From Escherichia coli (GTDB lineage: Bacteria; Pseudomonadota; Gammaproteobacteria; Enterobacterales; Enterobacteriaceae), in NCBI RefSeq assembly GCF_003790525.1, contig NZ_CP033635.1: a DNA stretch of 64,000 bases; one strand, given 5' to 3'. A program made the position numbers and the translations under genes. How positions within the stretch are numbered: position 1 is the stretch's first letter; each line of letters starts with the position of its first letter. Under the pieces are notes generated by a model. It had not been told where the DNA came from and did no database searches. It saw nothing but the letters and a program-made list of their open reading frames with translations. This document shows positions 1,821 to 49,424 of the stretch, one piece after another.

Positions 1821-1906
1821 CGTAAACTCCTGATAGCATTTTGAAAGCCGTTATAGTAGCGGCTTCACATCTTCAGCGATAGTCACATCCACCGTCACCA
1901 GGACAC

Positions 1907-1934
1907 AAAAAAACCTGCCGGAGCAGGTTTTTTG
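1907..1934 (-). terminator. intrinsic terminator immediately downstream of azuC (aaaaaaacctgccggagcaggttttttg)
   Basis: Perfect inverted repeat cctgc..gcagg flanked by A-run and T-run; bidirectional shape. Confidence 0.7.
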
Positions 1935-2021
1935 TTATCGGAACATATTGCCTGGTGGTACGTCTTTGAACGTCTTGCAATAGTTATTGAACATACTTTT
2001 CAGGATCTTGCGCAGTTTCAT
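1935..2021 (-). CDS. azuC: 28-aa small protein AzuC
   Basis: Minus-strand reading atgaaactgcgcaagatcctgaaaagtatgttcaataactattgcaagacgttcaaagacgtaccaccaggcaatatgttccgataa = MKLRKILKSMFNNYCKTFKDVPPGNMFR; below the 60-aa cutoff of the ORF track. Confidence 0.8.
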   Translation of the reverse strand: MKLRKILKSMFNNYCKTFKDVPPGNMFR

Positions 2022-2283
2022 CGCGGCACTCCGACTATTTGTTATGCAGGTGTTATTGTCTTTGCACTTATAATATGACAACCATCACAAAAATCAATCT
2101 TTATGTGATGCAAATCACATAAATACCCTTTTAATGTTATAAAAATGATAATCAAAAAGCAGCACCCCCATTTCTGACACCTACAGATGGCAAGAAATAG
2201 CGCCTGCCAGGCGTCTTTTCCGGCCATTGTCGCAGCGCTGTAACGCGTAAAATAGTGCTTTCTTTTACTCTTCTGGCTGGACC

Positions 2284-5016: not shown

Positions 5017-5682
5017 TTAATGCAGGCAGCACTGCTTAAATTTCTTACCACTACCGCACGGGCAAGGATCGTTACGCCCCGGTTTCTCTTCTGCTTTGAT
5101 CGGTTGCTGAACAGCTTTTTCCTGCGGATGCGCCATCCAGTACGCATGTAGATCAAGCGCCGCCAGTCGAATGGCATCTACGCTCTCTTCAAACGCTTCT
5201 GGCGACATCTTTTCTACCCGCTCGAAGTTTTCCTCAGTACCGTGCAGCGCAATCGCCTCCAGCGCTGGTTTTAACGAATCGGGCAACGTTGACCAGTCAG
5301 AAAGTGCCACGCCCCGCATATAACCAAAGCACCACTCCTCAACAATCGTCAGCTCGCTGCCATCAACTTCTCGCAAGCCGAATAACGGCTCAAACTGCTC
5401 CGGGAATTCGTTCAGACGCTCTGCGGTATCGGCCATATGTTGAAAAGCCAGATTCATAAAGCGCGTCATCTCTTTCTCTGACGCCCAGCGCGGCACATAG
5501 TCAGCCCCACCCCACACGGCAACCAGCCACTGTTCCGGTTCAATCTCTTGCGGAGAACTCAACACCGCCGTCAATAAACCGTCCAGCTCCGCCACATCAA
5601 GGATGGCGTGGTCAGTGTTGTATTTGGTCAGAATATCGTCCAGCCATTCCAACTCACTTTCGTTTAACGGTCCCGTTTTCAT
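5017..5682 (-). CDS. yecA: UPF0149 family protein with C-terminal SEC-C zinc-binding motif
   Basis: 221-aa ORF ending ...[18 protein letters not shown] (SEC-C motif). Confidence 0.85.
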
Positions 5683-5810: not shown

Positions 5811-5833
5811 AAAAAAACCACCCGAAGGTGGTT
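5811..5833 (-). terminator. terminator of the pgsA-glyW-cysT-leuZ transcription unit
   Basis: Minus strand reads ccaccttcgggtggtttttttg: hairpin plus T7 run immediately downstream of leuZ. Confidence 0.7.
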
Positions 5834-5877
5834 TCACGACACTGCTTATTGCTTTGATTTTATTCTTATCTTTCCCA

Positions 5878-9422: not shown

Positions 9423-9880
9423 AGGAATATCTCCAGAAATAGGGATAACGCTACTGATAGTTAGTCATTCGTATATTAGCGGTTTTTATTGCAACTTTGA
9501 AACGTTAAAAATGGTGGGTATTCGATTTTTCTCTCGTTTTTGTCAATTCGATTGTCCACAGTTATGGTCACGCCCGTCACCAACGGCTTACCGGATCGTT
9601 TCACAGTAAGCCCTACGATGAAATGTGACAAAAATTGACTTTATTCAGCAAAAATGAAAATCAGCCCGCTGAATATGTAACATTAATTAACCCGAACAAT
9701 ACGGGCAAAAAACATTCATGATAAAAATATTTATTGGTCATTATATTAACGTATTTTATAGCACTGCCGATATCACGCTCAAAAAACAACCACTGCTATT
9801 TTTAGCAAAGCTTATGGTATACTCCGCCGCCTTAACATTTTTCACCGCAAATTTTCATTGCAACATGACGAGGAAAATAA

Positions 9881-10105
9881 ATGAGTACGCCTGATTTTTC
9901 TACTGCCGAGAATAATCAAGAACTGGCAAATGAAGTCTCCTGCCTGAAAGCGATGCTGACGCTGATGCTGCAGGCGATGGGACAAGCTGACGCGGGCCGC
10001 GTGATGTTAAAGATGGAAAAACAGCTTGCGCTGATCGAAGACGAAACCCAGGCTGCAGTATTTTCCAAAACGGTTAAGCAAATTAAACAAGCCTACCGTC
10101 AGTAA
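9881..10105 (+). CDS. yecF: DUF2594 family protein YecF
   Basis: 74-aa [38 protein letters not shown]... Confidence 0.8.
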
Positions 10106-10894: not shown

Positions 10895-11123
10895 AGTAAA
10901 CCGCAACGCCCCTGAGAGTGAGTATCATTTATAATGATAATTCAAACTATCACATAAATAAGATTTATATATAATTTATATTATTCAGGCAATGAATTAC
11001 TTTTGCAAGCCATCGCATTCTCTTATGTTATTAATGAGTTATGCTGATTTGTTAAGCAGTTTTATCAGGCTTGAAATGGCGTCCCGCCCCGACAGGTGAA
11101 TCGTCGGGGCTGATTTTTTCTTA

Positions 11124-15851: not shown

Positions 15852-16028
15852 GATAAACAGCCCTGCGTTATATGAGTTATCGGCATGATTATCCGTTTCT
15901 GCAGGGTTTTTAATCGGACGATTAGTGGGTGAAATGAGGGGTTATTTGAGGTTTACCGGTAAATTCCAGGCAGAAAAAACCCCGCCGGTGGCGGGGATGT
16001 ACGTTGCTGACAAATTACGCTTCATGTT

Positions 16029-16062
<34 letters not shown>

Positions 16063-16098
16063 AAAAATGTGCAAATTCAATAAATTGCAATTCCCCTT

Positions 16099-16128
16099 GT
16101 AGGCCTGATAAGCGCAGCGCATCAGGCA
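16099..16128. repeat. REP unit in inverted orientation (BIME partner)
   Basis: gtaggcctgataagcgcagcgcatcaggca, inverted relative to the REP at 16029. Confidence 0.75.
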
Positions 16129-16170
16129 ATTTGGCGTTGCCGTCAGTCTCAGTTAATCAGGTTACGACGA

Positions 16171-39522: not shown

Positions 39523-39701
39523 CATCACCTTATCCGCAATTTTTTTCGCTGACAAGAAAATATTCGCGATATGAATGATTAACGCTACTTATGAATAGAA
39601 ATGTGACGTGCGTCACCCCTTGGTGGCTCTGGCGTCAACGGGATCGCTCCCGAAAAAATCATCTTTGATTATTTGTGCTGTTTTGAGAATCATCCTGGTA
39701 A

Positions 39702-47327: not shown

Positions 47328-47711
47328 TTATTCATAGCGTCTGCTACGTGCGGGACGAGGTCGGGTGTACCAGGCAATGCTGCCTAACAATGCCCCGACC
47401 AGAGCCATAAATAAAAATCCGACCAGTGCCCCTAACCACTTTCCCGCGGTAGAGCCTAAATCGCTTTCAAATCCCGACACCGGGGCATCGGGGATCCGGC
47501 TCATCACCCAGATGTAACGCGCCATTGCCCAGACGAAATAGCCACACCATGTATAGAAAGCCCACAAAGCCAGTTTGCCACCAGGGCTGCGAGAGAGTCT
47601 CTCTTCCATCTTTGTCGAACCGTATTCCATTTTGAGATAACCCGGAAAATTCAGACTTAGTACTATTATGTGATAAAAGTCACATTTTTCCACATTGGAT
47701 GAGCCAGTCAA
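47328..47711 (-). CDS. yedR: small inner membrane protein YedR (exact start uncertain)
   Basis: 127-aa ORF with two hydrophobic segments; true start may be a few codons internal. Confidence 0.7.
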   Translation of the reverse strand: MTGSSNVEKCDFYHIIVLSLNFPGYLKMEYGSTKMEERLSRSPGGKLALWAFYTWCGYFVWAMARYIWVMSRIPDAPVSGFESDLGSTAGKWLGALVGFLFMALVGALLGSIAWYTRPRPARSRRYE

Positions 47712-47859
47712 GACTCACTCATTTTTTGAACAAATAGATAATTTTTGCGCAACGGCAGTGAATACAGGAAAAATCGTTTTGAGCGATTTTATTTATCTTT
47801 GAGATCGGCTTTATTAATTCATTTAATCAATATATTAGCACTGAATACAATTATACCTT

Positions 47860-47948
47860 TTTATTTTTCTGTGTCATGATGCCTCCGTTATTAGCCTTTT
47901 ATCGTCTTGTTTATATTTTTTGGGCCGGCATGATGCCGGCTTTTTTTT
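47860..47948 (+). ncRNA. rseX: candidate small RNA in the yedR-yedS intergenic region, possibly RseX
   Basis: Strong intrinsic terminator gccggcatgatgccggc + TTTTTTTT at 47924-47948 on + strand with no upstream protein gene; -10-like ttatac about 70 nt upstream; the rseX assignment is from memory of its reported location. Confidence 0.45.
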
Positions 47949-48260
47949 ATGCCTTCATTAATGTGCGCGTGATCACACCAGCCGTTTGGCACAACAATCA
48001 TTGATACCCCCTATGCTTCCGCTCAACTCATAACATATTGATATACATTTATAATTTTCATGAATATTTATATTTAGAATTCATAATCCTGAATTATATT
48101 AAATAGATTAGAAACATTTTGAAATCTTTTAAATACATTTGTTACATGTAATCTTTAAAATAAAATGAACTTCATAGAATAGTATCCAAATGTGCTTTTT
48201 TTTTGGATAACGGCACTTATTGATATATTCATGAAGATTATAATCACAAGGGAATACATA

Positions 48261-49424
48261 ATGAAAAGAAAAGTTCTGGCAATGCTGGTCCCGGCGTTAT
48301 TAGTTGCTGGCGCAGCAAATGCGGCTGAAATTTATAATAAAAATGGCAATAAACTGGATCTGTACGGAAAAGTTGATGCTCGTCATACTTTTTCCGATAA
48401 CCCTGGCGATGACGGCGATGAAACTATCATCGAGTTAGGCTTCAAAGGTGAGACCCAAATTACAGATCAGTTAACTGGTTATGGTCAAGCACTGACCAAA
48501 ACAAAGGCTAGCGACACTGAAGGTTCTGATAATACTTATGTCAAACTTGCTTTTGCAGGTCTGAAGTTCGGCGAGATGGGCTCCTTTGACTATGGTCGTA
48601 ACTATGGTGTGATTTACGACGTTGAAGCCTGGACAGATATGCTTCCTGTATTCGGCGGCGACTCCTATACCTGGACTGATAACTTCATGGCAGGCCGTGC
48701 AAATGGGGTAGCTACTTACCGCAATAGTGATTTCTTCGGTCTGGTGGAAGGTCTGAACTTTGCATTGCAGTATCAAGGTAACAACGAAGGCAGCAATGCA
48801 GGAGAAGATCAAGAAGGTACTAAAAATGGTCACGAAGACGTTCGCTTCCAGAACGGTGATGGTTTTGGTCTTTCCACTTCATATGACTTTGACTTCGGTT
48901 TGAGCTTAGGTGCCGCTTACTCAAACTCTGACCGTACCAATTCTCAAGTAGCTCTTGGCGGGTATCACTACAATGAATACAGCAAATTTGCTGGTGGTGA
49001 TACAGCTGAAGCATGGACATTTGGTGCAAAATACGACGCCAACAATGTTTATCTTGCAATGATGTATGCTGAAACCCGCAATATGACACCATATGGTAAT
49101 GTGGGTATCGCAAATAAAACCCAGAACTTTGAAGCTGTAGCACAGTATCAGTTCGATTTTGGTCTGCGCCCATCTCTTGCATATGTTTATTCAAAAGGCA
49201 AAGACCTCGGCGGTAACGACTATAACAACAATGGTCATCAAGAGTATGTTGATCAGGATCTGGTCAACTATGTTGAAATTGGAGCGACCTACTATTTCAA
49301 TAAGAACTTCTCAACATATGTTGACTATAAAATAAACTTGTTGGATAAAGATGACGATTTCTATGACAACAATGGCATCGCAACAGATGACGTTGTTGGT
49401 GTGGGCTTAGTCTACCAGTTCTAA
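48261..49424 (+). CDS. yedS: OmpC/OmpF-family general porin, intact reading frame
   Basis: ORF 48192..49424; ATG at 48261 gives 387 aa with signal peptide [21 protein letters not shown], porin beta-barrel ending in C-terminal ...VGLVYQF. Confidence 0.85.

Follow-up and report, generated by a model that had tools for sequence, protein, structure and literature searches.

Identification of azuC

We conclude, with confidence close to certainty, that positions 1935..2021 of the stretch of DNA we analysed (64,000 nucleotides, hereafter the window) are azuC/AzuCR of Escherichia coli, an independent minus strand transcription unit for a dual-function RNA. The identification is correct and nothing contradicts the assignment; the gene is already known and experimentally characterised, and it is not novel. 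The original prediction had called a complete 28-aa gene azuC at 1935-2021, and this is borne out by the identity to K-12, the RefSeq coordinates and the NCBIfam model NF033642. It had also treated the locus as a plain small-protein gene. Of this the gene call stands, but the description was incomplete, since the transcript is also a base-pairing sRNA, AzuCR (the K-12 ncRNA azuR; PMC8915982).

The window is part of the E. coli chromosome and is collinear with K-12 MG1655 at about 1.986-2.050 Mb, with 97-98% identity. Positions 1-25128 are 99.98% identical to strain XDL and positions 25100-49100 are 100% identical to strain SMS-3-5. Around azuC the genes follow one another as araF (-), ftnB (+) 987-1490, yecJ (-) 1569-1820, azuC (-) 1935-2021, yecR (+) 2284-2607, ftnA (+), yecH (-) and tyrP (+). 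Elsewhere in the window, espR3 (yedN; 25419..26558, -) and the ompC-like porin gene yedS (48261..49424, +) are intact, as they are in SMS-3-5, and both are pseudogenes in K-12. A prophage that lies next to serU (~57700) in SMS-3-5 and XDL is missing from the window, and XDL carries an IS903-associated deletion of window 25129-49073.

The gene itself is described by two features:

1935..2021, minus strand: azuC coding sequence, 28 codons plus TAA, product MKLRKILKSMFNNYCKTFKDVPPGNMFR, from translation
2029..2032, minus strand: Shine-Dalgarno (SD) GGAG, 7 nt upstream of the ATG, from the sequence

Read on the minus strand, the 87 bases from 2021 to 1935 run ATG AAA CTG ... CGA TAA and form a complete ATG-to-TAA open reading frame (ORF). 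Its product is identical to K-12 AzuC (b4663) at 28/28 residues (100%), and the two coding sequences differ by 2 synonymous nt changes, in codon 5 (AAG/AAA) and codon 22 (CCA/CCG). In the near-identical strain XDL, RefSeq places a CDS azuC ('stress response protein AzuC', WP_010723106.1) at these very coordinates, 1935..2021. The NCBIfam equivalog model NF033642 (stress_AzuC) matches over profile positions 1-26/26 with a score of 75.9 bits (cutoff 30; E = 1.3e-21). At least 1000 contigs in public collections carry the exact protein sequence, labelled 'stress response protein AzuC', and its 90% cluster holds only 28-aa variants with a single substitution, from E. coli and Shigella. Of 5426 complete E. 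coli genomes, 5418-5419 carry the locus, with an identity of 95-100%. Pfam has no family for the protein and the PDB no relative of it.

The duplex of the SD with the anti-SD has an energy of -6.1 kcal/mol, and CGGAG in this region does not vary among the 6 loci aligned, which represent 2 or more genera. Residues 1-20 of the protein have a helical hydrophobic moment of 0.53, compared to 0.24 +/- 0.12 for shuffled sequences, of which 1.5% reach 0.53. This computed moment is consistent with the published amphipathic helix; the membrane localisation comes from K-12 experiments. K-12 AzuC is reportedly also the subject of works by Hemm et al. dating from 2008 and 2010.

Reading frame and coding constraint

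The claim that a 60-aa cutoff hides this gene was right, as the ORF is absent from the default 60-aa listing. When the minimum length is set to 20 (min_aa 20), azuC is shown only as a 48-aa ORF at 1935..2081 (-) with a TTG start, which follows from the ORF tool using the first start after a stop. That the real gene might be this longer form, as the listing gives it, is a reading to which we assign next to no chance. The transcription start site (TSS) is at 2063, downstream of the TTG at 2081, which falls inside the promoter spacer and CRP site 2 (see below) and has no SD ahead of it. The frame of the additional 20 upstream codons is not kept in other genera, whose untranslated region (UTR) contains indels, and neither the curated annotation nor the NCBIfam model extends beyond the 28-aa form. 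The 48-aa TTG version is a tool artefact which could mislead automated annotation. Separately, two plus strand antisense ORFs at 1932..2078 and 1987..2073 were rejected as mechanical artefacts.

An ORF of 28 codons is on its own not beyond chance. In the 9.7 kb of unannotated DNA in the window, starts and stops combine into 403 possible ORFs of 10-59 aa, and for 38 of these the anti-SD duplex is at least as strong as that of azuC. The frequency of such ORFs lends something to the reading that the locus encodes only a non-coding sRNA, the IsrB/IS092 of the first descriptions, with the 28-codon ORF being incidental, as does the report that AzuCR does act by base pairing (PMC8915982). We nevertheless consider this reading highly improbable. 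Substitutions between genera are concentrated at synonymous sites, with both the length and the frame of the ORF kept, and for K-12 a tagged protein, ribosome footprints and co-purification with GlpD have been published. In K-12 the reading is refuted by experiments described in PMC8915982, in which AzuC-SPA was detected and a stop-codon mutant lost the glycerol phenotype. The legend of Fig EV1 in 10.1101/2021.04.27.441574 likewise describes ribosome density on K-12 azuC in untreated, Onc112-treated and retapamulin-treated cells, so that the Ribo-seq check with initiation inhibitors which the original prediction had proposed is already in print for K-12. The coding reading of azuC is thus carried by its identity to K-12, NF033642, RefSeq, its near-universal presence in E. 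coli, synteny across genera and purifying selection.

The last two of these come from homologues outside E. coli. Species-representative genomes were scanned with a degenerate N-terminal DNA pattern, ATGAARNTNNNNAARNTNNTNAARNNNATGNTN, which is too permissive for AT-rich genomes. Among the matches listed there are at least 4 true azuC homologues outside E. coli, from E. albertii (MKLSKILKSMFDNYCKTFKDVPPGNMFR), from 'Enterobacter sp.' BIGb0383 (MKLRKILKSMFENYCKTFKDVPPGAMF) and from 'Enterobacter sp.' Bisph1 and a soil MAG (both MKLRKILKHMFETYCKTFKDVPPGAMF). The ORF is 27-28 aa long in the other genera with its frame preserved, and in 4/4 of the non-E. coli loci yecJ is the next gene downstream of azuC, on the same strand, while yecR and ftnA are found on the other side of azuC. 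Pairwise pN/pS among the 6 loci ranges over 0-0.29, and 11/18 variable CDS columns are third codon positions (binomial p = 0.014). This pattern of substitution indicates coding-type constraint, that is, purifying selection on azuC. In a six-locus alignment (A2) the invariant or nearly invariant blocks are the two CRP half-site blocks, the -10, TAACACCUGC(A/U)UAACA, CGGAG, the terminator stem and the U7 tract, while the spacer sequences and the terminator loop vary.

Transcript, promoter and regulatory sites

The transcript and the elements that may control it are the following:

1900..2063, minus strand: AzuCR (AzuR / IsrB / IS092) transcript, 5' end at 2063, from the K-12 annotation and the published TSS
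2070..2097, minus strand: sigma-70 promoter, -35 TTGATT at 2097..2092, 16-nt spacer, -10 TATTAT at 2075..2070, from a consensus scan
2104..2119, no strand assigned: CRP site 1, perfect TGTGA-N6-TCACA palindrome centred at ~-48.5, from a pattern search
2074..2089, no strand assigned: CRP site 2, 1 mismatch, overlapping the spacer and the -10, centred at ~-18.5, from a pattern search
2046..2052, minus strand: FnrS target site CACCUGC, 25-31 nt upstream of the ORF, complementary to the FnrS 5' end GCAGGUG
1950..1993, minus strand: predicted AzuR base-pairing region, RNA nt 71-114, within the coding sequence, from windowed RNAduplex

The published length of AzuCR, formerly IS092/IsrB, is 164 nt, and its +1 is K-12 position 1988001 (Raina et al. 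2022, PMC8915982). The K-12 RefSeq ncRNA azuR (b4434, 1987843..1988001) maps to window 1905..2063 by collinear alignment (offset 38), so that the 3' end is at 1905 if the RefSeq ncRNA of 159 nt is followed or at 1900 with the published 164 nt. The RNA is identical to that of K-12 at 160/164 nt. The 4 single-nt differences comprise +18 U>C and +28 G>A in the 5' UTR and two synonymous changes in the coding sequence, at +57 and +108. There is a 3-nt discrepancy in the published numbering, as the coding sequence is given as transcript nt 40-126 in PMC8915982 and falls at 43-129 when counted from its +1 and the RefSeq CDS 1987873..1987959. The fold of the whole RNA is not unusually stable (z = -1.8). 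Rfam 15 has no family for AzuCR and gave nothing there at gathering thresholds, and a permissive scan returned only sub-threshold matches to unrelated families, on both strands of the azuC terminator.

The position of the sigma-70 promoter fits the TSS at 2063, and across genera its -10 is invariant and its -35 nearly invariant in the six-locus alignment. CRP site 1 is conserved in alignment A2, and in CRP site 2 the blocks TTTTGTGATG...TCATATTAT are nearly invariant across genera. The placement of two putative CRP sites over the promoter fits repression, and CRP is reported to repress azuC transcription in K-12 (PMC8915982). Further matches to the CRP consensus occur elsewhere in the window, one a perfect palindrome at 47669..47684, ~175 nt upstream of rseX, and one with a single mismatch at 39602..39617, between dsrA and yedP.

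[quoted passage not shown] In the window this site, CACCUGC, is perfectly complementary over 7 bp to the 5' end of FnrS from K-12. The full match is owed to the +18 U>C difference (window 2046) from K-12, where the site reads CACCUGU with a G-U wobble, and the predicted duplex energy is -13.9 kcal/mol in the window versus -11.5 in K-12. The same CACCUGC is found in the 3 'Enterobacter sp.'/MAG loci, and the E. albertii type strain lacks the site (AGAUAUA; duplex -0.1 kcal/mol). We put forward as a tentative idea, with some chance of being right but more of being wrong, that natural variation in the AzuCR 5' UTR may tune the anaerobic repression of AzuC by FnrS between lineages.

AzuCR as messenger and as base-pairing RNA

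What the RNA does is known from K-12. AzuC is described in PMC8915982 as an amphipathic, membrane-associated protein that co-purifies with GlpD and raises its dehydrogenase activity. The RNA represses cadA and galE by base pairing through a sequence inside the coding region, which was verified there with compensatory mutations. Translation and base pairing are reported to interfere with each other (PMC8915982), as can be understood from the pairing sequence lying inside the coding region.

To look for the pairing sequence we used RNAduplex with 28-nt windows; unrestricted RNAduplex on the whole RNA gave meaningless long duplexes. As cadA, galE, glpD and fnrS all lie outside the window, pairing with cadA, galE and FnrS was computed against K-12 sequences. 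AzuR nt 71-114 are predicted to pair with positions -15..+25 of K-12 cadA, around its start codon, at -21 to -24 kcal/mol, and the prediction for galE is weaker. The likely cadA pairing site in our model is therefore nt 71-114, whereas the text of PMC8915982 states only that the pairing region and the coding sequence overlap. The synonymous G>A at +108 shifts the predicted cadA pairing energy by only ~1 kcal/mol.

Taken together with the K-12 work, the locus would function as follows. The sigma-70 promoter would start an RNA of 159-164 nt at 2063, which the intrinsic terminator at 1907..1933 would end. As an mRNA it would be translated from the GGAG/ATG at 2032/2021 into the 28-aa amphipathic, membrane-associated AzuC; as the sRNA AzuR, a sequence within its coding region would pair with the cadA and galE mRNAs and repress them. 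Transcription would be repressed by cAMP-CRP, and under anaerobic conditions FnrS would repress translation through pairing with CACCUGC in the 5' UTR. Sequence identity, cis elements, conservation, coding constraint and synteny are direct observations on this DNA. Translation, GlpD binding, repression of cadA and galE and control by CRP and FnrS we infer for this strain by analogy with K-12, as far as these are described in PMC8915982.

The terminator and the gene downstream

Between azuC and the end of ftnB we describe three further elements:

1907..1933, minus strand: intrinsic terminator, A6-CCUGC-UCCG-GCAGG-U7 with a 4-nt loop, from direct folding
1858..1853, minus strand: TACTAT, -10-like, ~32 nt upstream of the yecJ ATG, invariant in 6/6 aligned loci
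~1535-1570, both strands: ftnB/yecJ convergent-gene hairpin, -25.2 kcal/mol on the plus strand and -23.0 kcal/mol on the minus strand

The azuC terminator coincides with the annotated azuR 3' end. Its stem and T7 are invariant across genera and its loop varies. It folds at -18.0 kcal/mol on the minus strand (z = -4.9) and at -14.3 on the plus strand (z = -2.9), and it is symmetric, the stem being followed by U7 on the minus strand and by U6 on the plus strand. It had been described as a bidirectional terminator. This is accurate to the extent that a hairpin with A and T tracts folds on both strands, but azuC and yecJ are in tandem and not convergent. Known bidirectional terminators of convergent genes have a hairpin between an A-tract and a U-tract, as here, whereas the genes flanking this one are tandem. 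Because of this tandem arrangement on the minus strand, no annotated plus strand unit ends at 1907-1933 (the order being ftnB (+), yecJ (-), azuC (-), yecR (+)). A function on two strands is thus unsupported and the symmetry is structural only. The A-tract is largely conserved across genera, but this does not discriminate, because such conservation would be expected for an extended stem and for a plus strand U-tract alike. A scan for consensus terminators missed the hairpin that direct folding showed, likely because the A-tract pairs with the U-tract and leaves no free T-run. A sub-threshold Rfam match to STnc370 at 1875-1939 (+), scoring 30 bits where the gathering threshold is 54, probably reflects only this terminator.

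The separate hairpin at ~1535-1570, which has U6 on the plus strand and only UUUCUC on the minus strand, is, judged from sequence, the real convergent-gene terminator of the locus, serving the 3' ends of yecJ and of ftnB, the closest plus strand gene upstream. The consensus scan missed it as well, as the stem seen by eye (AAACCGCUGC/GCAGCGGUUU) leaves a 14-nt loop that is over the limit of the scan.

In a rival reading, azuC would open an operon with yecJ, as its first cistron or its leader, and the hairpin would work as an attenuator. The two genes are on the same strand ~115 nt apart, and they are adjacent in 4/4 of the non-E. coli loci recovered. However, the terminator between them is strong and conserved and has a U7 tract, and both the annotated RNA and the RNA published in PMC8915982 (159-164 nt) end there. 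The TACTAT at 1853..1858 is probably the -10 of yecJ, and its invariance suggests that yecJ has a promoter of its own and that azuC is a self-contained unit. We therefore judge the operon very improbable and keep to azuC as an independent transcription unit, from which some read-through into yecJ is possible. The consensus scan also flagged a plus strand promoter-like sequence at 1830..1857 (TATAGT, overlapping TACTAT). Other genera conserve TATAGT less well, and transcription initiated from it would meet the plus face of the azuC terminator.

Other small genes in the window

The original prediction had also warned that other genes below 60 aa could exist in the window, and one does:

9718..9894, plus strand: yecU, 58 aa, b4752 in K-12, from annotation

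Its overlap with yecF is 14 nt long, its sequence is the same as in K-12, and its SD is weak (-2.5 kcal/mol). Besides azuC and yecU, no gene below 60 aa is annotated in the window by RefSeq for XDL and SMS-3-5 or by the curated annotation of K-12, whose entries include small proteins confirmed by ribosome profiling. All annotated CDSs in the window translate cleanly.

Small-ORF prediction with RBS scoring, which had been proposed as a check, showed clear limits. Beyond the annotated genes the scan gave 27 further ATG/GTG candidates with an SD of -4.5 kcal/mol or better. Among the scored candidates azuC alone has purely synonymous differences from K-12; the others have either none, which is uninformative, or mostly non-synonymous ones. 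The synonymous test could thus separate azuC, but RBS scoring itself could not, given that 38/403 ORFs score at least as well, and it would miss yecU with its weak SD. The test against K-12 is low in power at a divergence of 2-3%, and for this reason further unannotated small genes are possible in the window. One candidate is a 36-aa ATG ORF at 47891..48001 (-), which has a very strong SD of GGGGG (-10.6 kcal/mol) and is antisense to rseX (47858..47947, +), an sRNA gene. K-12 has the ORF intact too, and since both of its differences there are non-synonymous it is probably a chance ORF.

Among the sRNAs annotated in K-12, only DsrA (39437..39522) and RseX (47858..47947) give Rfam matches at gathering thresholds in the window. 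The K-12 sRNAs 3'ETS-leuZ (5811..5877), SdsN (10983..11119) and FliX (15974..16168) map into the window at these approximate positions by offset, and none of the three has an Rfam match there at gathering thresholds.

Relation to known systems and implications

The closest known system is AzuC/AzuCR of K-12 itself (b4663 / b4434), with which the locus shares its promoter, CRP sites, SD, terminator and position between yecJ and yecR. SgrS/SgrT of E. coli is similar in that one transcript both base-pairs and encodes a small protein that acts on carbon metabolism. In SgrS, however, the coding and base-pairing regions are separate, while according to PMC8915982 those of AzuCR overlap and compete, and the two systems have no sequence relationship. 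Spot 42/SpfP of E. coli and VcdRP of Vibrio cholerae are, like AzuCR, described as CRP-linked dual-function RNAs that encode proteins of 15-29 aa affecting carbon metabolism; from these descriptions their sequences, targets and protein partners are unrelated to those of AzuCR.

The discovery value of this locus is low, as azuC/AzuCR has already been characterised genetically and biochemically, and its value here is methodological. It serves as a positive control which demonstrates that a 60-aa cutoff hides real genes and that a listing by first start gives them the wrong size (48 instead of 28 aa). RBS scoring of intergenic ORFs was neither specific, with 38/403 ORFs scoring as well as azuC, nor sensitive, as the weak SD of yecU illustrates. 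The comparative evidence from synonymous and non-synonymous differences, on the other hand, set azuC cleanly apart from the other candidates.
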